A stretch of DNA of 64,000 bases from Gemmatimonadales bacterium (lineage in GTDB: Bacteria > Gemmatimonadota > Gemmatimonadetes > Gemmatimonadales > GWC2-71-9): NCBI GenBank assembly GCA_035500495.1, contig DATJXC010000029.1, forward strand, positions 30,243 to 94,242, in the 5' to 3' direction. The position numbers were made by a program, and so were the translations under genes. Position 1 is the first letter of the stretch. Each line of letters begins with the position of its first letter. Below, one piece after another: positions 3,855 to 63,202 of this stretch. The notes beneath the pieces were generated by a model. The model was not told the DNA's origin. It searched no databases and saw only the letters and a list, made by a program, of their open reading frames with translations.

Positions 3855-3865
3855 GGCCCTGCAAT

Positions 3866-4921
3866 CTAGACGAGCGTCCGATACAGGGCTACGACGGATT
3901 CGGCCATCGCCGCCGCGGTGAAGCGGTTGGGAAGCGTCGGCCGCATCGGGCGGTCGAGCATGTGCACCACCCGCTGGGCCAACCGGGCGGCATCACCCAC
4001 CGGGACGAGCTGTTCGGCGGGGACGAGCTCCGGCAGTCCTCCCGCCGCTGTGGCGACCACCGGTGTGCCCAGGGCCAGGGCGTGCAGCACGACGCTGCCC
4101 AGGCCTTCTTCACGCGATGACATGACGAACACGCTCGCCTGGCGGATCAACGCGTCGACTTCCGTGACGTAGCCCAGCAGGTGCACGCGGTCCGTCAGGC
4201 CGAGAGATTCGACCAGGGCGAGGAGCGACGGACGTAACGGGCCTTCTCCGGCGATCGCCCAGTGCAGATCTGGACGCAGGGCGCGGGCGGCAGCGGCCGC
4301 CCGGATCAGGGTCGCCTGATCCTTATGGCCGACCAAGGCCGCGACGTTGACGGCCAGCGGGGCGCGGTCCGCGACCCCGAGCTCGGCGCGGAATCGCCGC
4401 GCGGGGGGGGCATCCGCGGCGGTGCGGACTTCGTCAGGGTCGATGCCGTCGGCGATGACGGAGACCCGCGATCCGTCCACACCATCGGCCATCAGCACGC
4501 GTCGCACGGCATCGGACACCGCGACGATCGCGTCGGCCGCAAACCAATGTCCGTGTGGCCGAATGTGGAAATCCACCCGCCGGTGCGCGACGATGCGGGG
4601 GGTCGGTCGGATCCAGCGCCGGGCCCAGACGGCGAGCGAGAGGGCATGGCTCTCGTGAACGTGAATGATATCGGGACGCCACCCGCGTCCCGCGCGCACG
4701 AGCCCCCACCACGCCCGCGGGTCCAGCCCCATGTCCCACGTCACGCCGGTCACCGGGACGCCCTCGACCCGCGCGCGCGCCGCCAGGGGGCCCGTGTCCC
4801 GCGTCACCAGCAATTGGTCCACCTCGGGGTGCCGCCGAAGCTCCCGGGTGAGCAGTCGGACCTGGTTCTGCCCGCCGCGCCATTCGCGACCGGCATCCAC
4901 CTGGAGTACGCGCACCGCCAC
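3866..4921 (-). CDS. glycosyltransferase, GT4 (group 1, GT-B fold)
   Basis: The track ORF 3866..5578 is over-extended. The GT begins VAVRVLQVDAGREWRGGQ with GTG at 4921..4919, overlapping the kinase stop (TAGTG). The C-terminal SREEGLGSVVLHALALGTPVVATAAGGLPELV is the GT4 E-x7-E region. Confidence 0.8.
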   Translation of the reverse strand: MAVRVLQVDAGREWRGGQNQVRLLTRELRRHPEVDQLLVTRDTGPLAARARVEGVPVTGVTWDMGLDPRAWWGLVRAGRGWRPDIIHVHESHALSLAVWARRWIRPTPRIVAHRRVDFHIRPHGHWFAADAIVAVSDAVRRVLMADGVDGSRVSVIADGIDPDEVRTAADAPPARRFRAELGVADRAPLAVNVAALVGHKDQATLIRAAAAARALRPDLHWAIAGEGPLRPSLLALVESLGLTDRVHLLGYVTEVDALIRQASVFVMSSREEGLGSVVLHALALGTPVVATAAGGLPELVPAEQLVPVGDAARLAQRVVHMLDRPMRPTLPNRFTAAAMAESVVALYRTLV

Positions 4922-14803: not shown

Positions 14804-14818
14804 CAGGAGGTAGCCGAC

Positions 14819-15364
14819 ATGCTGCGTAAGCTCGGAGCCGTGGTACTCGCTGTCGGGCTATGCCTGCCCTATGGATGCGACGTGCGACCGATCACCGGTG
14901 TGTGGTCCGGGATCTCCATGATCGCGTTCCTCGGCATCCCGGTCCTCCTCGGCGTCGTGTATGTCCTGCTGGTGCTGGTCCCTCCCGTGGCCGAGGCGCT
15001 CGAGCAGCGCGGGCAGGGAATCCATGGCCTGTTGCGGCTCTGCTATTTCGTCCTCGCTGGTGCCTACCTGGCCATGGCCATCACCAAAAGCGACAACTGG
15101 CCAGGGCCGATCGACGTCGCGGTGATGCTGGTCGTCACCGGAGCCCTCTTCTATTGGGAGCAGGGTCGGGGGACCAAAGCGGCGCGGGTGCCGCTGCTCC
15201 TGCTCATGTGCCTCGGCGTGCCCGAGGTCGCCTATCTCACGGGATTCCTGCGGGAGGGGGGGTTGCAGTACGGGGGCATCGTCCTGACGGCAGGGTGGTT
15301 GGTGGCCCTGCTCGCGGAAACCCGGGTTCTGGCCGGCGCGCCACGAATCGCGCACGGAGGCTGA
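14819..15364 (+). CDS. integral membrane protein, unknown function
   Basis: 181 aa with about 5 hydrophobic helices. A strong AGGAGG lies 6 nt upstream of the ATG. Confidence 0.6.
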   Translation: MLRKLGAVVLAVGLCLPYGCDVRPITGVWSGISMIAFLGIPVLLGVVYVLLVLVPPVAEALEQRGQGIHGLLRLCYFVLAGAYLAMAITKSDNWPGPIDVAVMLVVTGALFYWEQGRGTKAARVPLLLLMCLGVPEVAYLTGFLREGGLQYGGIVLTAGWLVALLAETRVLAGAPRIAHGG

Positions 15365-20148: not shown

Positions 20149-21807
20149 TCAGCGCTCCGCGCGATCCCGATCGATCAGCTGGTCCGGCGCGATGCGCCAG
20201 GTGCGAATCAGCGCGGCCCAGGCGTCGGGCCGGATGCGGACGTGGGTCACGCGCCGGTGCAGCGCGGCCACGTTATCCGCCGCGTTCAGCACGATCGCGG
20301 GGGCGTCCTGATTCAGGGTTTGGAACGCGCGCCGCCAGGCGTCGATCGCCCCCGCGCGGTCCGGGGCGGACACCGCCCGCTCGACCAGGCTGTCGAAGGC
20401 CGGATCTGCGTAGTGCCCGTAGTTGGAGCCTCCGCCGGTTTCCCACAGCTGGGCCACACCTGAGGACGGCGACGGATCGGCGGACCAGGATTGGATCGCG
20501 GTGTCGAACGTCCCCGCCCGGGAACGCTCGCTGAACGCGCCGGCGTCCACTTCGTCGATCACGACCTCCGCACCGATCGCGCGCAGCTGCTCCTGGATCA
20601 GGCGGGCGTACATCCGGCGGGAACCGCTCGTCACGGGCACCATCAGGTGGAACGAGAGCCTCACGCCGTTGTGGTCGCGGATGCCGTCGCCGTCCGTGTC
20701 CCGCCAGCCGCGGCGTTCCAGTATTCGGCTCGCCTGCAGCGTGTCGTAGGGCGGCACCGTCAGCTCGGGGAGCCAGAGCCACGACCAGGCCTGCGGTATC
20801 GGCGCCGGCGGCACCTTCGCGGTCCCCGCGAACACGCTCTGGGCCATCGCGGCCCGGTCGGTGGCGAGGATCAAGGCGCGCCGCACGTCGGGATCGCCGA
20901 ACAACGGGTGGGGTCGAGTGCTGTCGCCGTTGGCGCGAAGATTGTAGCCCAGGTAGCTGTAGACCGTACCGGAGTATGGGTAGAGCGCCAGCTGTGCGGC
21001 GGCCCGGGCGCGCGCCACGTTGGTCGGGGAGAGCAACACCTGCAAGGCGTCGGCTTCGCCCGCCACGAGCTGCGTCACCGCGGCGGAGAAGTCGGTGGCG
21101 AAGCGCCAGATCAATCGCCGAATGTGGGGCCGACCGAGAAAGAAAGTCGAGTCCGCGGCCAGCTCCAGCGACTCCCCCTCCTTCCAGGCGACCAGGCGGT
21201 ACGGGCCGTCCCCCACCGGAGCTCGGCCGAACGCCGCCGTGGTCCACTGACTGCGGGGCACGGCGGAGAGCAGATGCTCCGGCAGGATCCGCATGTGGTA
21301 GACCGCGTCGTAGAACATCTCGGGGTAGCGGTCGCGAAACGCGAAGGCGACGGTCAGCGAATCGCGCGCGACGACCGCGGCGATGTGCCGCAAGCTGGCC
21401 CGGTAGGGCGAAACCACAGTCGAGTCGGTGTAGGCGGCGAAGCTGAACGCGACGTCGCGCGCCCGGACGGGACGGCCGTCCTGCCAACGGGCGCGGGGGT
21501 CCAGGGAAAAGACCAGGGTGAGCGGATCGGCCCACCGCCACCGCTGCGCCAAGAGGGGCTCGAAGCCGGAATCGCCGAGCGTGCTTCCGGCGGGGCCGAT
21601 GTCAGCGAGCTTCAGGAAGATCTGATCGAAGATGTCGCTGTCGAGCTTCTGATCGGTCACCGGCGGGAGCAGGGACGTCGGTTGGCCGATCCCCAGGATC
21701 AGGAGCGTACCGCAGTAGTCACCCGCGCAGTCCACCCGCCCCCCGCCCGATGAGGCGGTTGCGCCCAGGGTGAGAAACAGAAGGAAGACCCAGGTCGCGA
21801 TGCGCAT
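20149..21807 (-). CDS. ABC transporter substrate-binding protein, family 5 (peptide/nickel type)
   Basis: 552 aa with a signal peptide (MRIATWVFLLFLTLGATASS). Length and sequence pattern fit SBP_bac_5. It directly abuts the first permease gene. Confidence 0.8.
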   Translation of the reverse strand: MRIATWVFLLFLTLGATASSGGGRVDCAGDYCGTLLILGIGQPTSLLPPVTDQKLDSDIFDQIFLKLADIGPAGSTLGDSGFEPLLAQRWRWADPLTLVFSLDPRARWQDGRPVRARDVAFSFAAYTDSTVVSPYRASLRHIAAVVARDSLTVAFAFRDRYPEMFYDAVYHMRILPEHLLSAVPRSQWTTAAFGRAPVGDGPYRLVAWKEGESLELAADSTFFLGRPHIRRLIWRFATDFSAAVTQLVAGEADALQVLLSPTNVARARAAAQLALYPYSGTVYSYLGYNLRANGDSTRPHPLFGDPDVRRALILATDRAAMAQSVFAGTAKVPPAPIPQAWSWLWLPELTVPPYDTLQASRILERRGWRDTDGDGIRDHNGVRLSFHLMVPVTSGSRRMYARLIQEQLRAIGAEVVIDEVDAGAFSERSRAGTFDTAIQSWSADPSPSSGVAQLWETGGGSNYGHYADPAFDSLVERAVSAPDRAGAIDAWRRAFQTLNQDAPAIVLNAADNVAALHRRVTHVRIRPDAWAALIRTWRIAPDQLIDRDRAER

Positions 21808-31287: not shown

Positions 31288-32472
31288 ATGAGCGACGGCC
31301 TGTCGCCCAATCTGCAGCACCTCGAAACGTCCGCCACGATCGCGATTTCGCAGGAGGCCAAACGCCGCAAGGCCGCGGGCGAGGATGTGATCGACCTCGG
31401 CGCCGGGGAGCCGGATTTTCCGACGCCGGCCGTGCCGGCGGAAGCCGGGATCAAGGCGATCCGCGACGGCAAGACGCGCTACCCGTCGAACGAGGGCATT
31501 CTCGAGCTGCGGGCCGCTGCGGCCCACCATCTCTCCCTGCTGTCTGGCGGACGCCCGGTGAATGCCGACCATGTCGTCGTCTCGACCGGCTCCAAGCAAT
31601 CGCTCTTCAATGCGTGCTTCGCCCTGTTCGGACCGGGTGATGTGGTCGCGATTCCGGCTCCCGCCTGGGTCTCGTATCCGCAGATCGTGCACCTCGCCCG
31701 CGCGCGGCCGGCCCTGGTCCCAGGTGATGCGGAGTGGGGGCTGAAGGTCAGCGTCCGCGAGCTGGAGCGCATGCTGCCGGCGCCCAAGGGCCTGATCCTC
31801 TGCTCACCCTGCAACCCGACCGGCTCGGTCTATACCCATGCGGAGCTCAAGGCGATCGCCCAGTGGGCGGCCGAGCGGGGGGTCTGGGTGATCGCGGACG
31901 AAATCTACCGGCGGATTCACTACGGCGGCGGGCCGGCACCATCCTTCCTCGATCTTCCCGATGAACTGTTGCAGCGCGTCGTGCTCATCTCGGGCGTGAG
32001 CAAGACCTACGCGATGACGGGGTGGCGGATCGGGTTTGCGCTGGCGCCGGGGCCCGTGGCCAAAGCCATGTCGGCGCTGCAATCCCATACGACGTCGGGG
32101 GCGAACCACATGGCGCAGTACGCGGCGGCGGCGGCGCTGTCCGATGAGCGCGTCGAGCAGGATGTGTCACGCATGGTCGGAGAGTTCCGGAAGCGGCGGG
32201 ACACCCTGGTGACCCGGTTCCGCCAGCAGCTTCCCGGCGTGGAGTTCGTCGAGCCGCTCGGGGCCTTCTACTTCTTCTTTCGTGTGGATTCGTTCGGGGG
32301 GATGTCGGGCACGCAGTTCTGTACCCGCCTCATCACGGAAACGGGCGTCGCCCTCGTGCCCGGCGCGGCGTTCGGTGACGACCGCTGGACCCGTCTCTCC
32401 TACGCGGCGGCGCCGGCCGAGATCGAGAAAGCCCTGGACCGGATCGTCCGGTTCGCCACGGCCCGCGTCTAG
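31288..32472 (+). CDS. pyridoxal-phosphate-dependent aminotransferase, class I (aspartate aminotransferase-like)
   Basis: 394 aa. LGAGEPDFPTP, NPTGSVY and SKTYAMTGWRIGF (PLP lysine). Confidence 0.9.
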   Translation: MSDGLSPNLQHLETSATIAISQEAKRRKAAGEDVIDLGAGEPDFPTPAVPAEAGIKAIRDGKTRYPSNEGILELRAAAAHHLSLLSGGRPVNADHVVVSTGSKQSLFNACFALFGPGDVVAIPAPAWVSYPQIVHLARARPALVPGDAEWGLKVSVRELERMLPAPKGLILCSPCNPTGSVYTHAELKAIAQWAAERGVWVIADEIYRRIHYGGGPAPSFLDLPDELLQRVVLISGVSKTYAMTGWRIGFALAPGPVAKAMSALQSHTTSGANHMAQYAAAAALSDERVEQDVSRMVGEFRKRRDTLVTRFRQQLPGVEFVEPLGAFYFFFRVDSFGGMSGTQFCTRLITETGVALVPGAAFGDDRWTRLSYAAAPAEIEKALDRIVRFATARV

Positions 32473-33701
32473 AGCTTGGTCGCGCGGGTGGAGAGCACCT
32501 CCAGTCCGTCGTCGGTCACGCGGCAATCGTCCTCGATCCGCACGCCGAACTTGCCCGGTTGGTAGATCCCCGGCTCGATCGTAAAGACCATCCCCGGCTC
32601 GAGGCGGGTGTCGTTGCCGTGCACCAGGTAGGGTGCCTCGTGCCCGTCCATCCCCATCCCGTGACCGAGTCGATGGGTGAAGTACTGCCCGTAGCCGCCG
32701 GTGACGATCGCGCCGCGGGCGGCGGCGTCCATCTGCTCGCACGTCACGGTGAACGGCTTCCCCAGCTGCATCGCGGCCGTCTGAGCGTCGTGCACCAGAT
32801 TGAACACCTTCTTGAACTCGTCCGATGGCGCGTCCCCGTACCAGTGGGTCCGGGTGATATCGGAGGTGTAGCCGGAAACTAGGCAACCGCAGTCGATCAA
32901 GACGACGGATTCTTTTTCCAGCTTCGAGCCGCCGGGCCCGCCGTGGGGGAGGGCGCTCGAGGGCCCGAACTGCACCAGGCCGCCGCCACTCGACCCGCGG
33001 CTGGCCATTTCCTGGGCGAGGTGGGTCGCCACCTCCTGTTCGGTTGCCCCGACCGCGAGGGCGGCGAACGTCGCGGCCATGCTGTCCTGGGTGATCTCGA
33101 TGGCCCGCCGGATCTGCGCAATTTCCTCGGGATACTTGATCATCCGGAGCCGGTCCGTCACGGCGACCGAGCTCCGGAGGTGCCAATCTCCCCCGGCTAC
33201 GTCCGCGAGACGGAGGTACGCGCCGTAATCGAAACTGGGCTCGATGATCAGCTCCCCGCGGTGGCGCGGTGGCTTGGCCGCCTGCAGCACCGCCTTCACG
33301 AGCTTCCAGGGATCCTGATCCTCTTCCCATCCGCGCACGTCGGAGATCGTGGTGCCACGCTTCACCCGCTCGACTTCGAAGCTGGGGCACACGATCACGG
33401 CCTCGCCCTTCAGCGGCACGAGCAGGGCGATGAGCCGTTCGCTGCGACCGGGGTTTGATCCGGTGAAGTAGGCGTAATTGGTGCTCGGCTCGACAATGAA
33501 GAGGTCGAGCTTCTGCGTGTTCATCTCGGCGCGCAGTCGGTCGAGCCGGCGAGCGAAAACCTCCGGGCCCAGCGCCGGCGTCTGACCCTGGGGCACGAGG
33601 GCGCGGCCGCTCGCGCGGGAGCGACGACCCGGGGCTATCCCGCCGAACCGCCCGACCATCACTGCCCCGCCCGCCGCCGTCAGAAACTCCCGCCGTTCCA
33701 T
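32469..33701 (-). CDS. Xaa-Pro aminopeptidase/dipeptidase, M24 family, with Tat-type signal
   Basis: MERREFLTAAGG is a twin-arginine motif. HRLGHGMGMDGHEAP, GMVFTIEPGIY and GVRIEDD are the metal ligand regions. Confidence 0.85.
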   Translation of the reverse strand: MERREFLTAAGGAVMVGRFGGIAPGRRSRASGRALVPQGQTPALGPEVFARRLDRLRAEMNTQKLDLFIVEPSTNYAYFTGSNPGRSERLIALLVPLKGEAVIVCPSFEVERVKRGTTISDVRGWEEDQDPWKLVKAVLQAAKPPRHRGELIIEPSFDYGAYLRLADVAGGDWHLRSSVAVTDRLRMIKYPEEIAQIRRAIEITQDSMAATFAALAVGATEQEVATHLAQEMASRGSSGGGLVQFGPSSALPHGGPGGSKLEKESVVLIDCGCLVSGYTSDITRTHWYGDAPSDEFKKVFNLVHDAQTAAMQLGKPFTVTCEQMDAAARGAIVTGGYGQYFTHRLGHGMGMDGHEAPYLVHGNDTRLEPGMVFTIEPGIYQPGKFGVRIEDDCRVTDDGLEVLSTRATKL

Positions 33702-33771: not shown

Positions 33772-34287
33772 ATGCAGTACGAAGCCCGTATCGAATCGCT
33801 GGATGGAAAGCTCCCCAAAGTCGCCTATCACTGGGACCCGGAGACCGACATTCTGTCCGTCGCCTGCAAGGGTGGGGCGAAAGCCACGGGGATGAATGGG
33901 ACCGTGGATCTGGAAGGAAGCGACGGCTCCTTCATCGTCCTCGATATCGCGGGTGGTCTGCTGCGCGGGCTGGATGTGGTCACCTGGCCAGACCAGGTCC
34001 GCAACGTCGACGGTTTGGCGGCTCCGGCACCCGATAAGGAAGGCCGCGTGGTGTTTCCGAGCCGGCGGTCGCAGCCGGAGATCACCGCGGTCGAGGTGGA
34101 CACGGCCCTGACCGTGGACAAGAACCCCAGCGAGTCGGTGTTCCACATGCGGGTGGGTCGGGCCCGTCCCGTGACGGTGGTCCGGGTCGGCGACAACCTG
34201 CTCGTGGAAGTGGACAAACAGTCACACCTGGCCGGCCTCTGGCTGATCGAAGTGCCGCCGTTCCCGGACTTCGACGCCGCCAGCTAA
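33772..34287 (+). CDS. hypothetical protein, possibly two DUF2283-like repeats
   Basis: 171 aa. VAYHWDPETDILSV...GSFIVLDIAGGLLRGLDVV and LLVEVDKQSHLAGLWLIEVP resemble the YDxExDxL...G.vvGiEi pattern. It ends 46 nt upstream of the NurA-like gene. Confidence 0.4.
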   Translation: MQYEARIESLDGKLPKVAYHWDPETDILSVACKGGAKATGMNGTVDLEGSDGSFIVLDIAGGLLRGLDVVTWPDQVRNVDGLAAPAPDKEGRVVFPSRRSQPEITAVEVDTALTVDKNPSESVFHMRVGRARPVTVVRVGDNLLVEVDKQSHLAGLWLIEVPPFPDFDAAS

Positions 34288-34333
34288 GCTCGACCGGCTC
34301 CCCTCCGTCGGGGGCCAGCGTTTCGATCGCCGA

Positions 34334-35317
34334 ATGCCCATACGTTGGATGGATGCGGCTATAGCCGCCGGCGCGGTGCCCGCCGCCTTTGTTCCGGAGG
34401 CGAGCCTCGGGCGTACCGACCTGACCACCGTCACGGGGGCCGACCTCGTCGAAGGAGAGCGTCTCCGCGCCCTGCCCGTTGGAGCGGCGGTCGGCCCGCC
34501 CGGTCCTGCGGCCTTTCTCGACGGTATCCAATACTGGGCGGTGACGGGGTACGACGGTGTGACGCCCATCGTCCGCGCCTACGTCGCGGCGGCGATCCGC
34601 CGTCGCGGACCGGACCGGCGCCTCCACACCGTGGCCGAAGCCATACGGGAGATCGGCATCACCTGCCGGGCCGCCCTGTCCCCGGCGGTGCGGAACGCCT
34701 TGGCGCGGTTCGAGGTGGACCTGATCGATCTTCCGGTGGCGGAAGCAAGCCAGCCCGGCCGCCTCCTCGCGGCGGCCCACGTGCAGGTGGACCGGGCCCG
34801 GGAGCAGATCGAACGTGACCTAGCCGAGCCCTACGTCGCCTCGATGGGAAAGGAGGAGTGGCTGGTGGTCGACGGTCTGCTCTCCGATACCGTGGCTCTG
34901 GCCCGCCACCCACGCGCCGTCGGCGTCGTGAAGAGTCATGGCGCTCAGTACTTCGAAGGTGAGGACCTGGTCACGGCGCTCACTTTGGCCCAGGGTCATC
35001 GCACCAGCGTGTTCCGGCCCCGGGGCCACAGGCACCAGCCCGTATTCTCCTGGTATCTCCGGCTGTGGCCGTGGCAGGGGAACGACCTGCACTACGGACT
35101 GCTGCGGGTCGAGGCGCAGGCCGCGGAGGACACGGTGGCCAGGGCCTCGGCCCTCTCGGCCTGGCTGCTGGGCGAGCGCGCCCCGTTGTCGACCCCGGAC
35201 GCGCGGTGGGACCGGCTGCTGTATCCTATATATGAAGTGGAAGCCTACCTGAAGTCCCGCGCTCCGGGGGATCTGCTCCCGTTGCCCGGCGCCCGTCTCC
35301 CGAGAACCGGCACGTGA
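34334..35317 (+). CDS. nurA: NurA-like nuclease (tentative)
   Basis: Ordered pattern FLDGIQ (D63), REQIERD (E157/E160), LVVDGLLS (D180), VVKSHG, SWYLRL and LYPIYEVEAY, resembling NurA motifs. Its stop overlaps the HerA-like start (GTGA 35314-35317). Confidence 0.55.
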   Translation: MPIRWMDAAIAAGAVPAAFVPEASLGRTDLTTVTGADLVEGERLRALPVGAAVGPPGPAAFLDGIQYWAVTGYDGVTPIVRAYVAAAIRRRGPDRRLHTVAEAIREIGITCRAALSPAVRNALARFEVDLIDLPVAEASQPGRLLAAAHVQVDRAREQIERDLAEPYVASMGKEEWLVVDGLLSDTVALARHPRAVGVVKSHGAQYFEGEDLVTALTLAQGHRTSVFRPRGHRHQPVFSWYLRLWPWQGNDLHYGLLRVEAQAAEDTVARASALSAWLLGERAPLSTPDARWDRLLYPIYEVEAYLKSRAPGDLLPLPGARLPRTGT

Positions 35318-37272
35318 TTCTCCGCCCCGACACGGACCCGGTCGGCCGGGTCGTCGCGACCGAGCTGAAGCCAGCTACCCCGCACCAGTTCCACTTCTGG
35401 ACGGCGACCGAGACCACGATCGGGATCGGAACGATCGTCAAGGTCGAAGCCGCCGGGAGAGGGGAGCCGGGAGAGGGGCGTGTCGTGTACGGGGTAGTCA
35501 CCGACGCCTACGCCTACTCCGACCTGGCCACGCCGCTGCATGACGTGGTTGGCGCCGAGGGGGATCCGGCGCGCGCGGCGGAGGCGCCGACGGCCCGCCA
35601 GGAGATCCGGCTCTGGACCGCGGCCGTGTTACGGCAGATCCCCGAAGAGCCGCTGCAGCCGGTGCCGCTCGGTCGGGTGTTTGTCGCGAGCGATGCGGAC
35701 GTGGCGCAGGCGCTGCGGATGGATGCCTATCTCTCCGGGGCCACGCCAACGGCCATCCCCATCGGGCTCTATTCCTCAGGAGGACTCGAGGCCCCGGTCT
35801 ACCTCGACGCCGACTTCCTGCTCGGTCCTGAGGCGGCGCACCTGAACATCTCCGGTGTGTCGGGGCTTGCCACCAAGACCAGCGCCGTCGAGTTTCTGCT
35901 CGGCGCGGTCTTCCAGCACTTCCCCCGTCACAAGGGTCGGATCGCGGCCGTCTGTTTCAATGTGAAGGGCCCCGATCTCTGCTTCCTCGATCAGCCGGGC
36001 GCGCTGACGGACGAGGATCGCGCTCGCTACGAGCGCCTGCACGTCGTCCCCCAGGCGTTCTCGCCGGTGCACTACTTCGCGCCCTTCAAGGCGGACGGGG
36101 TGAACCTCAACACCCTGCGGACCCATCCCGGTCTGGTGGAGACGGTCGAGCCGCTGGTGTGGGGGCTCGGCGAAGTGCTCGATTTCGCCGAGGTCCTGCT
36201 CAATCGTGACGATATCGACGCCAAGGCGGATGCGTTCATCGACTTTCTCTCGGACCGGGTGCTGAACCGCGAGTTTGAGGACGGGTTCGGGGGGACCCAT
36301 CGCGTGCAGACGTTCGCGGACCTGGAGCGGCTGTTCCGGGCGATCTTCGACGGGCTGGAGCTGTCCGGCCGGAGCGACATGTGGCGCACGCATCACATTG
36401 CGACGATCCGCAAGGTCCGCAACCGGCTCGGCAACGTGTCGACGCGGTGCAAAGGGCTGGTCACCGACGACGGGGCGGCGAACGACCTGCCCTGGGGGCG
36501 GTTCGAAGACCGCGCCGTCTACGTGATCGACCTTGCGAACGTGGATCCCCTGGGGCAGGACCTCGTGTTCGCCCGGGTCGTCTCGAAGCTGCGCGAGCAC
36601 CTCGAGAAGCGCGCCCTGGGGGTCGACGCGGTGGCCGTGTTCGTCGACGAGCTGAACAAGTACGCGCCCGCCGATGGCCCCGAGACGTATGTGAAGAAGA
36701 TGCTGCTCGACATCTCGGAGCGCGGCCGCTACCTGGGCCTCGTGCTGTTCGGGGCCGAACAGTTCCGTTCGCAGGTCCACCGCCGGGTGGTGGGGAACGC
36801 CGCTACCCAGGTGTTCGGGCGCATGGATTCGGATGAGCTGGCGACCCCCTCGTACCAGGTGCTGTCGCCGGCCACCAAGATCAAGCTCGCGACGCTGCCG
36901 GTGGGGGAGCTGATGGTCCGCCACCCGCATTTCACCCAACCGATCTTCGTGCGGTTTCCCCGCCCGCCGGTCCTGCGCGGGCGCGACGGCGTGGAGCGCT
37001 TCCCGCCCGCCGCGGACCTGCCGTTCGAGGAGGCCGTGGTCCGGCAGCTGGTGCGCCTCGACCGCCGGGTGAAGCCGAATGTCGTCAGGGATCTGATCGC
37101 CGATCGGGAAGAAGACGACGTGCGTCGCGCCCTGGGGGCGACCCGCCGTGAACGACCGGCCGATGTCGTCGCCTTCTTCCGCAGGGTGCTCGGGGCGCGG
37201 GTAGGTCCCGAGTCGCCGCGGGAACGGGCCGTGGTGCCGCCGTTGAACCCGCTTTCCGAAGAACCCTACTGA
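35314..37272 (+). CDS. herA: HerA-like ATPase/helicase (HAS-barrel + FtsK/HerA-type P-loop core)
   Basis: N-terminal barrel-like GRVVATELKPATPHQFHFWT...IGTIVKVEA...VVYGVVTD. P-loop region NISGVSGLATKTS (deviant), Walker B AVAVFVDELNKYAP, then LVLFGAEQFRSQV...TQVFGRM. Confidence 0.7.
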   Translation: MILRPDTDPVGRVVATELKPATPHQFHFWTATETTIGIGTIVKVEAAGRGEPGEGRVVYGVVTDAYAYSDLATPLHDVVGAEGDPARAAEAPTARQEIRLWTAAVLRQIPEEPLQPVPLGRVFVASDADVAQALRMDAYLSGATPTAIPIGLYSSGGLEAPVYLDADFLLGPEAAHLNISGVSGLATKTSAVEFLLGAVFQHFPRHKGRIAAVCFNVKGPDLCFLDQPGALTDEDRARYERLHVVPQAFSPVHYFAPFKADGVNLNTLRTHPGLVETVEPLVWGLGEVLDFAEVLLNRDDIDAKADAFIDFLSDRVLNREFEDGFGGTHRVQTFADLERLFRAIFDGLELSGRSDMWRTHHIATIRKVRNRLGNVSTRCKGLVTDDGAANDLPWGRFEDRAVYVIDLANVDPLGQDLVFARVVSKLREHLEKRALGVDAVAVFVDELNKYAPADGPETYVKKMLLDISERGRYLGLVLFGAEQFRSQVHRRVVGNAATQVFGRMDSDELATPSYQVLSPATKIKLATLPVGELMVRHPHFTQPIFVRFPRPPVLRGRDGVERFPPAADLPFEEAVVRQLVRLDRRVKPNVVRDLIADREEDDVRRALGATRRERPADVVAFFRRVLGARVGPESPRERAVVPPLNPLSEEPY

Positions 37273-37289
37273 GCGAGGAGCCAGCGCGC

Positions 37290-38180
37290 GTGCGGTGGTC
37301 CGTCGTTTCGGATGCTCTCGCGGTCTGCGGCCTCGCGGCCGCGGCGCTCGCGTGTGGCCCCGAGCCCTACAGCGGGCCCGTCACCGGCAAGATCCTGTTG
37401 CGCTACCACCCGCCGGCGGGTGCGCGTTACGCCTACGCCTTCTCGCAGGTATCGACCATGAAGGAGCCCAACGGGCCGATGGCGGGCATGGGCGAGCAAC
37501 GAATCGAGCTCGCGATGTGGTTCAACCAACAGGTGGGCCCGACGGAGGGGAATGGCGCGGGGGTCGGTCTGACCGCGGTGATCGACTCGGCCCGCGTCAC
37601 GTCGCCGCTGGTCGGCGGCGACGTGGCCCGCCAGTTGGCTGGGGCACGGACGACGATGATCGTGGACGACCACCTGCGCGTGCTCCGCGCGGATCCCGCA
37701 TCGCCCCTGTCGCACGACGCGAGCCAGGTCGCGGAGCAGATGGTCGCGTCGCTCCGCACGATGAGCTTCCCGTTGCCGGACAGCGCCGTCGGTCCCGGCG
37801 ATTCGTGGATGACACCGATGCAGGTGCCCTATACCGATTTCGCGGGCGGAGAGCCGGTGTTCGCGACCACGCGGCTCGCGGTGCAGAGCCTCGAGGTGGT
37901 GCGGGGCGATACCGTCGTGGGGTTCACCGTGGAGGTACAGCTCCCGCACAAGCCGATCCCGGTCGTGGTCATGGGCCAGCCTGGCACGATCTCCCTTTCG
38001 GGGACCATCGCCGGGACCCAGAAATTCTCGCTGAACCGCGGAGCCATCCTGGCCACCGAATATTCCGGGACGGTCGTTGTCACCATGAGCGGTGGGACCT
38101 TGGGGCCCAACGCGATGCACCTGGACATCGGACAGGAGGCGTCGCTGACGTTGCTGGACGGAAGGCAGGGAGGGCGCTGA
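37290..38180 (+). CDS. predicted exported protein or lipoprotein, unknown function
   Basis: GTG start. MRWSVVSDALAVCGLAAAALACGPEP is a signal peptide with candidate lipobox cysteines. Composition is ordinary. It sits 17 nt after the HerA stop and 4 nt before the SbcD start. Confidence 0.6.
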   Translation: MRWSVVSDALAVCGLAAAALACGPEPYSGPVTGKILLRYHPPAGARYAYAFSQVSTMKEPNGPMAGMGEQRIELAMWFNQQVGPTEGNGAGVGLTAVIDSARVTSPLVGGDVARQLAGARTTMIVDDHLRVLRADPASPLSHDASQVAEQMVASLRTMSFPLPDSAVGPGDSWMTPMQVPYTDFAGGEPVFATTRLAVQSLEVVRGDTVVGFTVEVQLPHKPIPVVVMGQPGTISLSGTIAGTQKFSLNRGAILATEYSGTVVVTMSGGTLGPNAMHLDIGQEASLTLLDGRQGGR

Positions 38181-38184
38181 ACGC

Positions 38185-39369
38185 GTGAAACTGGCCCACC
38201 TCGCCGATCTCCACCTCGGTTTCCGCCAGTTCGACCGGCAGACACCGCGGGGGGGGAACCAGCGCGAGGCGGACGTGGCGCAGGCCTTTGCGCGCGCGGT
38301 GGACGATCTGCTGGAGCAGCGTCCCAATCTCGTGCTGGTGGCGGGCGACGTCTTCCACTCGGTGCGACCGACCAACCCGGCGATCCTGTTTCTCTTCCAG
38401 CAGCTGCAGCGCCTGCGGGTCGGGCTGCCGGACGTGCCGGTCGTGCTCGTCGCGGGCAACCACGATACTCCGCGGTCCGCGGATACGGGGACCATCCTCC
38501 GCCTGTATGAGGCGCTCGGCGTTCACGTCGTGAACGAAACCGCGCGCCGGCTCGTGTTCCCCTCGCTCGACTGCGCGGTCCTGGCCGTGCCGCACCAGGC
38601 ATTGATCGCCCCCGAGCGCCCGGCGCTGCGACCGGAGCGGGGCGGCCCACGTTTCAACGTGCTGCTCGCCCACGGGGAGCTGCCGGAGCTGACCCCCATC
38701 GGCCAGGTGCCGCTCGAGTTCGGGGGCGCCCCGCTCTCCCGCGAGGAGCTCGGGATCGCCCACTGGGATTATGTCGCCCTGGGCCATTTCCACGTCGCCA
38801 ACGAGGTCGCGCCCAACTGCTGGTACGCGGGATCGTTGGAGTACGTCAGCGTCAATATCTGGGGTGACCTGCGGGAGCAATCGGATCGAGCCGGGAAGCG
38901 GGAGGGGAAAGGCTACCTGTTGGTGGACCTCCCCGGCGCCAAGGTCACCTTCCGTCCGGTGGCTCCGGCGCGGCGCTTTCTCGATCTCCCCCCGGTGCAC
39001 GGCTCCGGTCTCACGGCCAAAGAGGTCATGGCCCAGATCGAGCAGCGGGTCGGAGCGGCCAAGCCGTCGATCGACGACCAGGTGGTGCGGCTGGTGGTGT
39101 ACGACGTCTCCCGCGGTACGGCGGCGGATCTCGACCACGCCGCGATCCGCGCCTTCAAGGCGCGGGCCTTGAACTTCCAGCTGGACATCCGGCGGCCTGA
39201 ATCGCGGCGGGTGACGGGGGTCGGGGCTCCCGGAAGCCGGCTGACGCTCCCCGAGACCGTGCGGGGATTCCTGGCGCACCGCCCCCTGGACGCCGATCTG
39301 GACCGCGACGAGTTCGTCCGGTTGGGCGTTCACTACGTGGAGCAGGTCAGCCGGGAGGACCACGGCTGA
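38185..39369 (+). CDS. sbcD: SbcD/Mre11-family nuclease
   Basis: All calcineurin-like phosphoesterase motifs are present in order: LADLHLG, AGDVFH, VAGNHD, LLAHGEL and ALGHFHV. GTG start. Confidence 0.9.
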   Translation: MKLAHLADLHLGFRQFDRQTPRGGNQREADVAQAFARAVDDLLEQRPNLVLVAGDVFHSVRPTNPAILFLFQQLQRLRVGLPDVPVVLVAGNHDTPRSADTGTILRLYEALGVHVVNETARRLVFPSLDCAVLAVPHQALIAPERPALRPERGGPRFNVLLAHGELPELTPIGQVPLEFGGAPLSREELGIAHWDYVALGHFHVANEVAPNCWYAGSLEYVSVNIWGDLREQSDRAGKREGKGYLLVDLPGAKVTFRPVAPARRFLDLPPVHGSGLTAKEVMAQIEQRVGAAKPSIDDQVVRLVVYDVSRGTAADLDHAAIRAFKARALNFQLDIRRPESRRVTGVGAPGSRLTLPETVRGFLAHRPLDADLDRDEFVRLGVHYVEQVSREDHG

Positions 39370-41813
39370 TGCAGCTCCACCGGATCCGCCTCGTGAACTT
39401 CCGCCAGCACGCCGACACCGATCTGGCGTTCGGCCCGGGCGTCACCGGAATCATCGGGCCGAACGGTTCCGGAAAGACCACGCTGCTCGAGGCGATGGCG
39501 TGGGCGATTTACGGCGTGCAAGCGGCCCGGGGCGACAAGGACTCGGTCCGGAACCTGAGGGCCAAGGCGCGTTCATCCGTACGCGTGGAGGTGGAGTTCG
39601 GTCTCGGGAAGCACGAATTCCGGGTCGTGCGCGGCCTGCATCAGGCGGAGCTGTACCAGGACGGCCATGTCGTCGCCAATGCCAACCGCGAGGTCACCGA
39701 CCGGCTGCAGCGCGCGCTCGGGATGACCCATGACGAGTTCTTCAACACCTACTTCACGGCGCAGAAAGAGCTGGCCGTGATGGCCTCACTCGGGAAGACC
39801 GAACGAGCGGCGTTTCTCGCGCGCATGCTGGGATATGAGAAGCTCGACTTCGCGCAGGTGGCGGTGCGCGAGACGCGCAACGCGGCCGCCGCCGAGCTGC
39901 GTGGGCTCGAGGCCGGATTGCCCGACCGTGCGGTGCTCGCAGAGGAGCGATCCCAGGCGCAGCGGCGTCTCGAGGGGGCCCGGACGACGGCGACGGAGGC
40001 CAATCGAAAGCGTGCCGCCGCCCTTGAGGCCCTCGAACGGGAGACGCCCAAGTGGAAGGCCTGGGAGGAGCGCCGCGATCGCAGCCGCTCTCTCGAAGCG
40101 GACCGCGCCATGGCGGCGCTTGCCGTCCAGACCGCGGTGCAGGAGATCGAGCGGATCAACAAGGCGCTGGCTGATGCGCTGCGAGCCAAGAGCCAACTCG
40201 CCGAGCTGGCCGATCCCCTCGCCCCCGTGGGTCAGCTGAAGGAGGAGCTCGGTCGCCTGGAAGAGCTGCAGCGGCATGAAGCGGCCCGCCGGGCGGAACA
40301 GGCTCAGCTGACGGAGCTGGCGCGAGCGCAGGCGGAGCTTGAGGCCCGGTTGCAGGAGCTTGCCTCCGCCGACGCCACCCTTGCCCGAGTGGAGCGGGAG
40401 GCGGCGACCGTGCAATCCCGCGTGCGGGTCGTGGAACAGGCGATCGAGGAGGAGCGGACCGCGTGGGTCCGCGACCGCCAGGATGCGGAGACGAAACGGC
40501 TGCAGCTGCGCGAGCAGTACAAGGAGGTCAAGGAGCAACGCGACCTGATCGCTGGACTCGGACCGGAGGGGGTCTGTCCCACCTGCAAGCGGCCACTCGG
40601 GAGCGAGCATGCGACGGTGGTGGAGGTGCTCGATCGCCAGCTCGAAGACATCACCATCAACGGGCAGTTCTTCAAGCAGCGGGTGGAGCAGCTCGAAACG
40701 GAGCCGGCGAGCCTCCGGGCGGCCGAAGCGGAGCGCGACCGGGCGCTCGAGGCGGAGCGGGCGGTGAATGCGCAGCTGGGCGCGCTCAAGGAACAGCTGC
40801 AGGAGCGGGGGCGCGCCCAGGAGTTTCAGACAGCCGGCGCGGCGCGGGCCGCGGAGATTTCGGCCCGCCTGGCGGCGCGCCCCACGGGCTACGATCGCGA
40901 GCGCCATGAGGTCGTGCGGGCGGAATTGACGCGGCTCGAGCCGCTGGCGTTGGAGGCGGCGGTGCTCGACGCCAAGGCCAAGACCGCGGAGAGCCTGGTG
41001 CAGGAGGCGGAGCAGGCCGAGGCCGCCCTCACCCGGCAGGAGCGCCGGGCCACCGAGCTGGCGGACGCCATCGCCGCTCAGGGGTTCTCGGAGGCGCAGT
41101 TTGCCAGGGCCAAGGAGCGCTACGAGCGCCTCACGGGGGCGCTGCGGGAGAGTGAGCTGGAGGTGCTCGAAGCGCGCGGGGCGCTGATGCGGGCCGAGGA
41201 AGTCATCACCGAAGTCGACCGGCGACTGGTCGAGCGCGAGGCGCGGGAGCGCGAGATCGCCGAGCGCAAGGTGCGTCTGCGGTTGCACAACGAGCTGGAC
41301 CGGGCCTTCTCCGATCTCCGGGCCGAGCTGAATGCCGCGATGCGTCCCGAGATCGCCGAGCTCGCCTCCTCCTTCCTGGCCGACCTGACCGATGGGCGGT
41401 ACGATGCGATGGACTTGAGCGAGGACTACCGGGTCACCATCCTGGACGACGGGATCCCCAAGACGGTGATTTCCGGCGGGGAGGAGGATCTTGCGAACCT
41501 CGTCCTGCGGCTCGCCATTTCCCAGATGATCGCCGAGCGGGCGGGTCAGCCGCTGTCCCTGCTGGTGCTGGACGAGATCTTCGGCTCGCTCGACGAATCG
41601 CGGCGGCAGCACGTCCTGGGGCTGTTGCGGCGCCTGGGGGATCGCTTCCCCCAGGTCATTCTCATCACGCACATTGACCAGGTGCGGGAAGGATTGGATC
41701 GTGTGATCCGGGTCGAGTACGATGTCACCTCCGGCAGCAGCGTGGTGCGGGACGATACGGCCACACTCGCCGCGGGAGGAGGAGGGGGGCTCGATGCGGG
41801 CGTGGCTGCCTGA
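39369..41813 (+). CDS. sbcC: SbcC/Rad50-family ATPase with zinc hook
   Basis: Walker A GPNGSGKTT, long coiled coils, central hook CPTCKRPL, signature ISGGEEDLANLVLRLA, Walker B LLVLDEIFGSLD and H-loop ILITH. The ATG overlaps the SbcD stop (TGATG). Confidence 0.9.
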   Translation: MQLHRIRLVNFRQHADTDLAFGPGVTGIIGPNGSGKTTLLEAMAWAIYGVQAARGDKDSVRNLRAKARSSVRVEVEFGLGKHEFRVVRGLHQAELYQDGHVVANANREVTDRLQRALGMTHDEFFNTYFTAQKELAVMASLGKTERAAFLARMLGYEKLDFAQVAVRETRNAAAAELRGLEAGLPDRAVLAEERSQAQRRLEGARTTATEANRKRAAALEALERETPKWKAWEERRDRSRSLEADRAMAALAVQTAVQEIERINKALADALRAKSQLAELADPLAPVGQLKEELGRLEELQRHEAARRAEQAQLTELARAQAELEARLQELASADATLARVEREAATVQSRVRVVEQAIEEERTAWVRDRQDAETKRLQLREQYKEVKEQRDLIAGLGPEGVCPTCKRPLGSEHATVVEVLDRQLEDITINGQFFKQRVEQLETEPASLRAAEAERDRALEAERAVNAQLGALKEQLQERGRAQEFQTAGAARAAEISARLAARPTGYDRERHEVVRAELTRLEPLALEAAVLDAKAKTAESLVQEAEQAEAALTRQERRATELADAIAAQGFSEAQFARAKERYERLTGALRESELEVLEARGALMRAEEVITEVDRRLVEREAREREIAERKVRLRLHNELDRAFSDLRAELNAAMRPEIAELASSFLADLTDGRYDAMDLSEDYRVTILDDGIPKTVISGGEEDLANLVLRLAISQMIAERAGQPLSLLVLDEIFGSLDESRRQHVLGLLRRLGDRFPQVILITHIDQVREGLDRVIRVEYDVTSGSSVVRDDTATLAAGGGGGLDAGVAA

Positions 41814-42768
41814 GCGGACGGTGACCGGGCCGATTCCCGTGACGGTGCAGGACGTGCGGGAGCTGAACCACCTCTTCGCCGAGTCGTTCACCGACCGGTA
41901 TCGCCGCGACGGCCTCGTCGGGGTCCGCGTCCCGGAGCTGAATCCCAAAGTCTGGGAGTACGCCCTGCTCGACGCCGGACACGGCGCGATGCTGTGGCGC
42001 GATGAAGCCGGCGCCATCGCCGCTTTCAACGTCGCGCACCGCTGCGGGTCCGAAGGCTGGATGGGGCCGCTCGCCGTCCGCATCGACCGCCAGGGGACCG
42101 GGCTCGGCAAGACGATCGTGCGCACCGCGGTCGATTGGCTGATCGACCAGGGCGCGACGACCGTCGGACTCGAGACCATGCCGCGGACCGTGGAGAACAT
42201 CGGCTTCTACGCCCGGCTCGGGTTCGTCCCCGGGCATCTCACCGTGACCATGAGCCAGGACATCGCGGTCCGCCGGAGAGGGCAGCCGGTACCGGCGTTG
42301 TTGTCAACGCAGGCGGCCGCCGACCAGGAGCGCTCCGTCGCCGCCGTGCGCGGGCTGGTTTCGACGCTCGGGCCGGGCTGCGACTTCACGCGGGAGATCC
42401 TCCTTACCGCGGAGGTGGGACTCGGCGACACCGTCCTCGTCAGCGACGGGGGCGAGCTCACCGCGATGGTGCTGTGGCACACCGCGTCGCTCGCGGCGGA
42501 TCGCGGCTCCGATGAGCTTCGGGTGCTGAAGCTCGCCGCCCGTGACGCCTCGGCCTTCGAGGCCGCCGTCACCGCGGTGGAGCGTTCGGCCGCGTCGCTT
42601 GGGCTGCGACGCGTCGCGGTGCGGTGCCAGACCGGGTACCCTGGCGCCTTCCGCGCGCTCGTGGCCCGCGGCTATCAGGTGCGCTGGACGGACCTGCGCA
42701 TGAGTCTCGACGGGTATCCCGAGCGGCTGGCGGCCCGTGGGGTGCTGTTCTCGAATTGGGAGATATGA
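41794..42768 (+). CDS. GNAT family N-acetyltransferase (two-lobed)
   Basis: In frame within track ORF 41722..42768. ATG 41794 is preceded by GGGAGGAGGAGGGGGG. The acetyl-CoA motif is VRIDRQGTGLGKTIV...GFYARLGF. It overlaps the sbcC 3' end by 20 nt. Confidence 0.7.
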   Translation: MRAWLPERTVTGPIPVTVQDVRELNHLFAESFTDRYRRDGLVGVRVPELNPKVWEYALLDAGHGAMLWRDEAGAIAAFNVAHRCGSEGWMGPLAVRIDRQGTGLGKTIVRTAVDWLIDQGATTVGLETMPRTVENIGFYARLGFVPGHLTVTMSQDIAVRRRGQPVPALLSTQAAADQERSVAAVRGLVSTLGPGCDFTREILLTAEVGLGDTVLVSDGGELTAMVLWHTASLAADRGSDELRVLKLAARDASAFEAAVTAVERSAASLGLRRVAVRCQTGYPGAFRALVARGYQVRWTDLRMSLDGYPERLAARGVLFSNWEI

Positions 42769-43991
42769 TCGCCGGCCTGCTCATCTTCGCCGCGACCTAC
42801 CTGCTGATCGCGGTGCAGCGTCTCCCCTTCATTCATCTCAATCGCCCGGCCGCGAGCCTCCTCGGGGCCGTCGCCATGGTCGCCTGCGGCGTGCTGACCA
42901 TTCCGCAGGCATACGCGGCGATCGATCTCGACGTGATCGTATTCCTCCTCGGGCTGATGCTGATCGTCGGGTACCTCGAGGTGGGGAAGTTCTTCGAGTG
43001 GGGGGCGGAGTGGGTGCTGCGACGCGCGCGCACCCCGGGGCGCCTGCTCTTCGGCGTCGTCGTGGGTGGCGGCCTGTTGTCGGCGTTATTCGTGAACGAC
43101 ACCGTCTGTCTGGTCGTGACCCCGGTGCTGCTCGCGGCCCTCGGTCCCCTGCGCGTCCGCCCCATCCCGTATCTCCTGGGCTTGGCGATGGGCGCGAACG
43201 TCGGCTCCGTCCTGTCGGTCACCGGCAACCCACAGAACATGCTGGTCGGCATCTGGAGCCAGACGACCTTCGGGGCGTTCGCCTGGCGCATGCTGCCCGT
43301 GGCCGTGGGCGGGCTGGCGATAACCTACGGATGGCTGCGCTGGACGTTCCGCACGGAGCTGCGCGAGCCGTTCCTAGAGTCCCCGGCACCGGTCCCGGTG
43401 AGTCTGGATCGACCCCTCGTGGCGAAGGGGATCCTGCTGTTCGGCGCCGCGGTCGCCGGGTGGCTCGCCGGCGGCTCGCTCCCCGGCGTCGCGATCACGG
43501 CGGGAGCGGTAATGGTGCTCATCGCCGGTCGGGATCCGGCGTATGCGATCGAGCGGGTGGACTGGGACCTGTTGCTGTTCTTCGCGTCGTTGTTCGTGGT
43601 CATGCGCGGCTTCGAACAGACCGGCGCGGTGGCGTGGATCGACCGCCACGCCCTCCAGCTGGCCCAGCAGCAGTCGCCGCTCGGCACCGCGGCGGTGGTG
43701 AGCGGGGTGATGGTGACGCTGTCGAACCTGATTTCCAACGTGCCGGCCGTCATCTTGTGGCGGAACACGGTGCCGCACCTGCCCGATCCTGGCCTGATGT
43801 GGCGGGTCGTCGCGATGAGCGCGACCTTCGCCGGGAATCTCGTGCTGATCGGCTCGGTGGCGAACCTGATTGTCGTGGAAAAAGCGGCACACCGAGGGGT
43901 GCGGATCGGGTTTTGGACCTATGCCCGCGTGGGGATACCCCTGACGCTCCTGACCACGCTGTGGGGAATCGGAGTACTGACTCTCTCTTAG
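42765..43991 (+). CDS. ArsB/NhaD-superfamily anion permease (citrate-transporter-like)
   Basis: In frame within track ORF 42624..43991. Start MIAGLLIFAATYLLIAV at 42765 gives an ATGA overlap with the GNAT stop. About 10 or more TM helices, with LSALFVNDTVCLVVTPV and GNPQNMLVG. Confidence 0.75.
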   Translation: MIAGLLIFAATYLLIAVQRLPFIHLNRPAASLLGAVAMVACGVLTIPQAYAAIDLDVIVFLLGLMLIVGYLEVGKFFEWGAEWVLRRARTPGRLLFGVVVGGGLLSALFVNDTVCLVVTPVLLAALGPLRVRPIPYLLGLAMGANVGSVLSVTGNPQNMLVGIWSQTTFGAFAWRMLPVAVGGLAITYGWLRWTFRTELREPFLESPAPVPVSLDRPLVAKGILLFGAAVAGWLAGGSLPGVAITAGAVMVLIAGRDPAYAIERVDWDLLLFFASLFVVMRGFEQTGAVAWIDRHALQLAQQQSPLGTAAVVSGVMVTLSNLISNVPAVILWRNTVPHLPDPGLMWRVVAMSATFAGNLVLIGSVANLIVVEKAAHRGVRIGFWTYARVGIPLTLLTTLWGIGVLTLS

Positions 43992-44344
43992 GCGCTGGGC
44001 GAGCGCGGCTCACGGGCGGGCCGCGGTTCGAGCGATTGGTCGGTAGAGCCGGTGACGTAGATCGTCGGCGAGAGGCCTAGCACCTCGAAGCCATGTCGGG
44101 TGCCAGGGGCCAGGTCGAGGCGATCACCCGGGCCGAGCTCGAATGCCTCCCCGCCGACGGTGATGCGCACGAATCCCGACAACACCCACCGCACTTCCGG
44201 AAACGGGTGCGCATGCTCGTCGACATGGGTACCCGGGATATCCGACCACCACGCCGTCACCATCCCTTCCCGCTTCAACGCGCCGCGCAGCGTCGAGAGC
44301 TGCAGCGGGCCGAGGGTGGGGTCCCACCGCCTGACGGTCGTCAT
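43988..44344 (-). CDS. cupin domain protein
   Basis: 118 aa. HAHPFPEVRWVLSGFVRITVGGEAFELGPGDRLDLAPGTRHGF is the two-motif cupin signature. Confidence 0.75.
   Translation of the reverse strand: MTTVRRWDPTLGPLQLSTLRGALKREGMVTAWWSDIPGTHVDEHAHPFPEVRWVLSGFVRITVGGEAFELGPGDRLDLAPGTRHGFEVLGLSPTIYVTGSTDQSLEPRPAREPRSPSA

Positions 44345-55440: not shown

Positions 55441-58271
<2,831 letters not shown>

Positions 58272-60847: not shown

Positions 60848-63202
<2,355 letters not shown>

Follow-up and report, generated by a model that had tools for sequence, protein, structure and literature searches.

A nurA-herA-mre11-rad50 gene cluster in Gemmatimonadales bacteria, a candidate module for DNA-end processing

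An eight-gene array in a Gemmatimonadales contig

The locus described here is an array of eight genes in a stretch of 64,000 nt from a Gemmatimonadales bacterium (GCA_035500495.1, DATJXC010000029.1:30,243-94,242; about 68 % GC), the whole of which is referred to as the window. The array contains genes for relatives of NurA, HerA, Mre11/SbcD and Rad50/SbcC together with four genes of other families, and its members are numbered g1 to g8 in their order on the plus strand, from 33772 to 43991 (Table 1). The closest relatives of the window are all metagenome-assembled Gemmatimonadales. Nearly all work on bacterial NurA-HerA concerns Deinococcus and Thermus. The present locus is likely to be a chromosomal, vertically inherited four-gene module for DNA-end processing with the gene order nurA-herA-mre11-rad50.

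Inspection of the open reading frames (ORFs) and of the sequence confirmed the eight plus-strand genes and the minimal or negative spacing that an earlier note on this DNA had described, with every junction reproduced. The nurA stop codon overlaps the herA start codon in a shared GTGA (35314-35317), and the stop codon of mre11 overlaps the start codon of rad50 in TGATG (39367-39371). The spacing is 17 nt from g3 to g4 and 4 nt from g4 to g5, and g7 and g8 share ATGA at 42765-42768. For g7, a start at the ATG at 41794, 20 nt inside the end of g6, is preferred because it is preceded by a GGAGG-rich stretch, GGAGGAGGAGGGGGG, and because the tblastn alignments in other loci start there. An alternative ATG at 41722 (window 41722-41793) would overlap rad50 by 92 nt. 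As opposite-strand genes, encoding an M24 peptidase and a cupin, lie on both sides of the array, it forms a true directon. The overlapping stop and start codons indicate co-transcription and probably also translational coupling, which would give matched amounts of the subunits.

Seven of the eight ORFs, all except g1, lie above the composition filter applied to ORFs of the window, a GC content at third codon positions (GC3) > 0.82, and have values of 0.83-0.89. The coding status of g1, which falls below this filter, is backed by about 1,000 conserved homologues. The scan for promoters and terminators was uninformative for this phylum: no sigma-70-type promoters were found, and the terminator-like sites, all of which lie within coding sequence, were no more numerous than expected from shuffled sequence (6 vs 3.2 +/- 2.1). 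The spacer between g1 and g2 appears hairpin-like by eye, but its fold is no better than that of shuffled sequences (z = 0.23).

Table 1. Coordinates of the array genes and of other features of the window.
Feature	Position	Strand	Description
M24 peptidase	32469-33701	-	bounds the array upstream
g1	33772-34287	+	171 aa, two weak DUF2283-like halves; 46 nt before g2
g2 nurA	34334-35317	+	327 aa, predicted bacterial-type NurA nuclease, RNase H/PIWI-like fold
g3 herA	35314-37272	+	652 aa, predicted bacterial-type HerA hexameric dsDNA translocase
g4	37290-38180	+	296 aa, predicted lipoprotein, DUF6263-like, between herA and mre11
g5 mre11/sbcD	38185-39369	+	394 aa, Mre11-family phosphoesterase nuclease
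g6 rad50/sbcC	39369-41813	+	814 aa, Rad50-family SMC-like ATPase
g7 GNAT	41794-42768	+	324 aa, N-terminal GNAT domain and a C-terminal part of ~165 aa without family
g8 permease	42765-43991	+	408 aa, CitMHS/ArsB-superfamily anion permease
Cupin	43988-44344	-	bounds the array downstream
Antisense ORF	35776-36939	-	387 aa, opposite herA
Antisense ORF	37266-38495	-	409 aa, opposite g4
Antisense ORF	39786-42200	-	804 aa, opposite rad50
LigA	55441-57585	-	NAD-dependent DNA ligase
GyrB-type	60848-62926	-	topoisomerase subunit

Assignment of the four core proteins

None of the window proteins g1, g2, g3 and g4 had a match in Pfam (at E ≤ 0.01), NCBIfam or PADLOC. The search with profile hidden Markov models (HMMs) that had been proposed as a check in the earlier note therefore failed for the NurA and HerA models. 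Despite this, both assignments were borne out, and they are kept on the basis of PDB matches, a family profile and structural evidence. For g3, a phmmer search of the PDB matched the HerA of Deinococcus radiodurans (DrHerA, 7f6d_B) with E=4.1e-41, aligning residues 7-236 and 363-562; this alignment spans the N-terminal barrel (HAS-barrel) region and the RecA-like ATPase core. The Walker A motif GVSGLATKTS (K188/T189) and the Walker B motif VFVDE, within VFVDELNKY (D445/E446), align to K175/T176 and D487/E488 of DrHerA, which have been shown to be essential (PMC9960219). No archaeal HerA matched g3 at E ≤ 10 in the PDB search. Judged from its sequence, g3 is a bacterial-type HerA.

For g2, a pairwise search of the PDB returned chance matches only. 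An exhaustive search gave a family of 581 representative clusters, from which an alignment and a profile (A1) were built. This profile matches the NurA proteins of Thermotoga maritima (1zup, 7.6e-11; tmNurA by name in PMC9960219) and D. radiodurans (7f6d_H, 2.6e-9), and the Pfam NurA model PF09376 is matched by 18 of 71 family members, the best at 4.8e-7. The AlphaFold2 (AF2) model of g2 has a predicted local distance difference test score (pLDDT) of 88.1 and a predicted template modelling score (pTM) of 0.87. In a Foldseek search with this model, the only strong fold matches were DrNurA (7f6d_G, 1.4e-14, probability 1.0) and 1zup (4e-10), followed weakly by Argonaute PIWI domains and RNase T, and archaeal NurA structures were not among the significant matches. 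Across three alignments of the family, D63 (in FLDGxQ), E160 and D180 (in VDG) are invariant and H202 (in KSH) is conserved in at least 90 %; going by the order of the motifs, these four residues form the putative catalytic set. Because of the profile, the family members that match PF09376 and the modelled fold with its matches to DrNurA and TmNurA, g2 is classified as a divergent bacterial-type NurA. Current Pfam, NCBIfam and PADLOC models thus miss a whole clade of NurA and HerA. Due to this blind spot of the HMM libraries, such genes are annotated as hypothetical or as 'ATP-binding protein'.

The assignment of g5 and g6 is more direct. The full set of phosphoesterase motifs reported for SbcD in the earlier note was located in g5, where the five motifs are D8xH10, GD55xxH58, GN92H93, H163 and GH201xH203. 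Pfam Metallophos matches g5 with 1.6e-13 and 51.9 bits (cut-off 21.5), and the best NCBIfam models, Mre11_Sulfo with 68.5 bits (cut-off 500) and the sbcd subfamily with 68.7 bits (cut-off 77.65), both stay below their cut-offs. This places g5, by sequence, in the Mre11/SbcD superfamily and outside any curated equivalog. Its nearest solved chains are those of archaeal Mre11 (3auz, 4tug and 1ii7).

In g6, the Walker A and B motifs, the signature motif and the CPTC zinc hook that had been claimed for SbcC were all located: Walker A at residues 30-37, Q132, SGGE at 702-705, LVLDE at 732-736, H768 and the central zinc hook at 403-406 of 814 residues. The Pfam models SMC_N (80.4 bits) and SbcC_Walker_B (29.1 bits) match above cut-off, and Rad50_zn_hook reaches 18.4 bits, under its cut-off of 24.3, so that the hook motif is there and its model match is sub-threshold. 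The best NCBIfam model is archaeal Rad50 (PRK03918, 181 bits vs 82 bits for sbcc), and the best PDB matches are archaeal Rad50 structures (3aux and 3qkt) with both halves of the head aligned. Compared to the stand-alone sbcDC of the E. coli type, the window pair belongs to the same Mre11/Rad50 superfamily and likewise consists of overlapping genes, but g6 is short, scores far higher against Rad50 than against sbcc and lies behind nurA-herA. From these comparisons, g5 and g6 are Mre11/SbcD and Rad50/SbcC proteins, and their archaeal counterparts are nearer to them than SbcCD of the E. coli type.

Distribution of the cluster and of its neighbours

The counts within the order are based on the 80 closest species loci from a scan of genome contigs with HerA, and the denominators are the loci with enough sequence. 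All loci returned by this single-protein scan belong to Gemmatimonadales, and a metagenome scan with the alignment A2 kept only the 80 closest loci, with identities of 58-83 %, all of which are probably Gemmatimonadales as well. HerA is 78-85 % identical in 79 of the 80 species loci and 72 % identical in the most divergent one, L080. The gap between nurA and herA is at most 30 nt in all 75 loci, and the same holds for mre11 and rad50 in 62 of 63. Both genes of the latter pair are always present (mre11 in 63/63 loci, rad50 in 52/52). In L022, the rad50 match starts about 1.1 kb past the end of mre11 (13982-15130), which may be due to an insertion, a broken rad50 or a gap in the assembly. The flanks, with genes for an aminotransferase, the M24 peptidase, a DbpA-domain protein, the cupin, a Na/Ca exchanger and PTPS, are syntenic too. 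Since they are conserved in the same places, synteny within the order cannot show function on its own.

The four additional genes are distributed differently from the core. The GNAT gene (g7; Pfam Acetyltransf_1, 3.6e-11, residues 53-144) was present in all 48 Gemmatimonadales loci with enough sequence, and its gap to rad50 is at most 30 nt in 56/56 loci, with a median overlap of 20 nt. Searches of the PDB and Pfam with g7 yielded nothing beyond generic GNAT matches, and its last ~165 aa, the C-terminal half, matched no family. The gene is the sole additional one that is always coupled to rad50, and this applies only within Gemmatimonadales, where the flanks are equally syntenic. The GNAT gene would accordingly be a co-expressed neighbour of rad50 across the order, at most a lineage-specific modifier and possibly an order-specific accessory. 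The permease gene g8 (Pfam CitMHS 7.3e-60, ArsB 2.9e-16) is present in 21 of the 43 Gemmatimonadales loci that extend far enough downstream. The N-terminus of g4 carries a lipobox-like signal, LAAAALA followed by C, as read from the sequence, and its orthologues reach DUF6263 with 6.3e-6 and 26.4 bits at best, just under the cut-off of 26.7. This protein is fast-evolving: its orthologues (e.g. L071 12014-12865) have 24-39 % identity where HerA has about 80 %. An insert of the size of g4 lies between herA and mre11 in 46 of 76 loci, a recognisable g4 homologue was found in 45 of 76, and herA directly abuts mre11 in 21 of 76. On this distribution, the predicted lipoprotein g4 and the permease g8 appear to be variable passengers.

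The first gene, g1, is present in all 56 Gemmatimonadales loci and is no more than 30 nt away from nurA in just 1 of 64; it is best described as a syntenic upstream neighbour that usually stands apart from nurA. DUF2283 (PF10049) is matched sub-threshold by 18 of 35 g1 orthologues (best E=0.0021; cut-off 23 bits) and not by g1 of the window, and the AF2 model of g1 was unusable (pLDDT 36). The junction between g1 and nurA is a hot spot for insertions, in which the intervening genes differ by species, with none in the window and in L009. Inserts were seen in L003 (8308-8991), L012 (8323-9012), L002 (8281-9015), L026 (8185-8940) and L080 (7287-8936), and they include genes for an O-methyltransferase, a UbiG-like methyltransferase and a 549-aa amidohydrolase. 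The junction between herA and mre11 behaves likewise, with variable inserts. The comparison of neighbourhoods in related genomes, which the earlier note had suggested, thus shows that the four core genes travel together and that the set of eight does not.

The contexts in other lineages come from 11 individually inspected loci. A compact nurA-herA-mre11-rad50 cluster occurs in four Armatimonadota loci (L081, L082, L166 and L168; GC about 50 %) and in L085, from a lineage with a GC content of 33 %. The identities of these five to the window proteins are 50-55 % for HerA, 29-36 % for Mre11 and 31-35 % for Rad50. No homologues of g1, g4, g7 or g8 were found at the Armatimonadota or the 33 %-GC clusters. 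In L171, a more distant Gemmatimonadota-like contig, g1-nurA-herA-(283 aa)-mre11-rad50 are packed with overlaps. The possibility that the adjacency is unique to the genome of the window was looked at, and the adjacency was found across the order and in other phyla.

Several of the inspected loci carry further genes within or beside the cluster. In the Longimicrobiales-like contigs L167 (7631-9405) and L172 (2128-3789), nurA is immediately followed by genes for a flavin reductase and a short-chain dehydrogenase; those of L172 share the strand of nurA and herA and separate the two. L083 has a hydrolase gene between nurA and herA and a Cas12f1-like/TnpB gene at the edge of the locus (21009-21017), about 7 kb from herA. 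In L170, from a related lineage, a g1-like gene and nurA are set apart by genes for a 501-aa KaiC/RecA-like ATPase and for a hybrid histidine kinase (3352-6497), and genes for a Ser/Thr kinase and a CLC channel on the opposite strand separate herA from mre11-rad50. All Armatimonadota clusters have a SIR2 (PF02146) gene of 256 aa that shares the strand of nurA and precedes it by about 100 nt (L081 9133-9903, L166 9096-9866, L168 9133-9903). These loci are closely related to each other, so that the SIR2 linkage counts as a single observation. PF02146 is the classical sirtuin family and not the defence-type SIR2_2. A deacetylase in Armatimonadota and an acetyltransferase in Gemmatimonadales hence adjoin the same module in two phyla, which is a weak parallel.

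Among known systems, the archaeal one is the most familiar. Constantinesco et al. are said to have described, in 2004, a herA-mre11-rad50-nurA operon in thermophilic archaea. The window has the same four families clustered, and its Mre11 and Rad50 are closest to archaeal structures and NCBIfam models. It differs in gene order, in its bacterial-type HerA and NurA, which match Deinococcus and Thermotoga proteins only, and in its high-GC bacterial host. The closest characterised proteins are NurA and HerA of D. radiodurans (DR_0836/DR_0837; PDB 7f6d; Yang et al. 2023, PMC9960219), which share with the window the nurA-herA operon, the unusual HerA Walker A motif GxSGxATKTS and the bacterial-type NurA fold. 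The D. radiodurans pair is treated as a two-gene operon, whereas the window array adds mre11-rad50, and the window NurA is too diverged from DrNurA for a pairwise sequence match. A connection of SbcCD to the D. radiodurans proteins has been left as an open question (PMC4663267).

The composition of the array had been thought to match no known system, but a bacterial precedent exists in Oceanithermus profundus, where homologues of SbcD and SbcC are encoded downstream of nurA-hepA (Blesa et al. 2017, PMC5448004). The authors view this cluster as an archaea-like architecture for double-strand-break repair (PMC5448004). As in the window, nurA is followed by herA with sbcD and sbcC downstream in a bacterium (PMC5448004). 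The O. profundus cluster, compared here by description only, belongs to a thermophile of the Deinococcota and is covered by one descriptive sentence and no family-wide survey; GNAT, lipoprotein or DUF2283-like neighbours are not reported for it (PMC5448004). The four-gene arrangement in bacteria has therefore been noted before, and with its recurrence in Armatimonadota and L085 its phyletic reach is wider than documented.

Proposed role, alternatives and surroundings of the array

What is shown here concerns the identities of the genes, their junctions and motifs, the fold and the conservation; a mechanism can be proposed from homologues characterised in archaea and Deinococcus. By analogy, Mre11-Rad50 would recognise, tether and trim broken or blocked DNA ends, and duplex DNA would be threaded through the channel of a HerA hexamer and into a NurA dimer that sits on the HAS-barrel face of HerA. 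NurA would then degrade the 5' strand and leave a 3' tail for RecA. Translocation and strand degradation have both been demonstrated with homologues from Deinococcus and archaea. The linkage throughout the order, the HerA identity of about 80 % and the recurrence in Armatimonadota and the low-GC lineage provide comparative evidence that the four proteins cooperate in bacteria. An operon that unites nurA-herA with archaeal-like mre11-rad50 is maintained across an entire order of common soil bacteria, and lineages have been identified in which the link between NurA-HerA and SbcCD could be tested. The remaining four genes, judged by their distribution, are not parts of a common machine.

Several points weigh against a four-gene end-processing module. 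The Pfam models for NurA and HerA do not match the window proteins g2 and g3 themselves, and the overlap of the GNAT gene with rad50 in 56/56 loci is more regular than a mere passenger would be expected to show. In L083 and L169, mre11-rad50 is not near nurA-herA, and in L167 and L170 the four genes are dispersed or broken up by opposite-strand genes, so co-transcription is not obligatory. Furthermore, deletions of nurA and herA in D. radiodurans and Thermus thermophilus resulted in modest effects on, or even improved, damage resistance (PMC9960219, PMC4663267), and therefore a resection role in bacteria is not established.

The deletion results also bear on the possibility that the four proteins are as identified but act mainly outside classical double-strand-break resection, for example at stalled or reversed forks, at hairpin or protein-blocked ends, in DNA uptake or transfer, or in growth control. 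Resection proper would then be carried out by RecBCD/AddAB/AdnAB or RecJ encoded elsewhere. This is unlikely, though it has a real chance of being correct. It is consistent with the small contribution of D. radiodurans NurA-HerA to radiation resistance and its interaction with RecJ (PMC4663267), with the modest or improved resistance of deletion strains (PMC9960219) and with the lineages that keep nurA-herA without linked mre11-rad50, and Thermus relatives of HerA act in DNA donation (PMC5365140). What speaks instead for joint action on DNA ends is that three distant lineages repeatedly keep nurA-herA in tight linkage with mre11-rad50, and DrNurA-HerA does resect 5' tails in vitro (PMC9960219).

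A reading that goes further than the four-gene module is that, in Gemmatimonadales and perhaps beyond, mesophilic soil bacteria resect double-strand breaks mainly through NurA-HerA/Mre11-Rad50, and that acetylation regulates this pathway, with the GNAT protein as a fifth, lineage-specific component. It would be based on the coupling of a dedicated two-domain GNAT gene to rad50, seen in all Gemmatimonadales species that were compared, and on the sirtuin-type gene immediately upstream of nurA in Armatimonadota, and the acetylated substrate would be Rad50/Mre11, HerA or a DNA-end-binding protein. We regard this as unlikely.

It is very unlikely that all eight genes form one functionally integrated new system, as the earlier note had suggested when it proposed that the four resection components are co-transcribed with the additional genes as members. 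The four components are present and coupled, and the array does consist of same-strand ORFs with gaps of at most 46 nt between opposite-strand genes. In addition, g1 and g7 occur in every Gemmatimonadales locus that is long enough, and the overlapping arrangement of L171 includes g1 and a 283-aa gene. Nevertheless, the integrated eight-part system did not hold: g4 is missing or unrecognisable in 31/76 loci, g8 is missing in 22/43, unrelated genes part g1 from nurA in 63/64, and none of the four additional genes was found at the clusters of other phyla. The flanking housekeeping genes are equally conserved, so synteny at the level of the order does not discriminate, and Thermus provides a precedent for passengers with unrelated metabolic genes only 4 bp and 13 bp from nurA-hepA (PMC5448004).

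HerA-family ATPases also occur in defence systems, which is the general ground for the alternative that the array serves anti-phage defence through a HerA ATPase and nucleases, like Sir2-HerA, DUF4297-HerA or Lamassu/SMC-type systems. This alternative, raised in the earlier note, is hardly credible: g6 has generic SMC-type matches to the PADLOC models mad3 and LmuB (about 1e-30) and nurA of Armatimonadota closely follows a SIR2-domain gene, but PADLOC gave no matches for g2, g3, g4 and g5, g6 matches Rad50 models far better (181 bits) and has the zinc hook, the SIR2 gene belongs to the sirtuin-type PF02146 rather than to SIR2_2, the single syntenic locus is strongly conserved in 80 species between housekeeping flanks with no mobility or defence neighbours, and distant partial HerA-like matches occur on just 6 of 72,556 plasmids.

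The surroundings of the array agree with the housekeeping flanks and the lack of nearby mobility genes that had been described for this DNA, as annotation of the neighbours and of the window confirmed. Three long ORFs antisense to herA, g4 and rad50 (Table 1) were considered as genes and rejected, since 0/3 pass the codon-position GC filter and such ORFs are expected in stop-poor, high-GC DNA. No tRNA and no Rfam matches were found in the window. The rest of the window encodes housekeeping proteins such as the glycine-cleavage P protein GcvP, a TonB-dependent receptor and TldD/PmbA, among others. The genes for LigA and a GyrB-type topoisomerase subunit, 12-19 kb downstream of the array, confirm a core chromosomal region, and no link between them and the array is implied.

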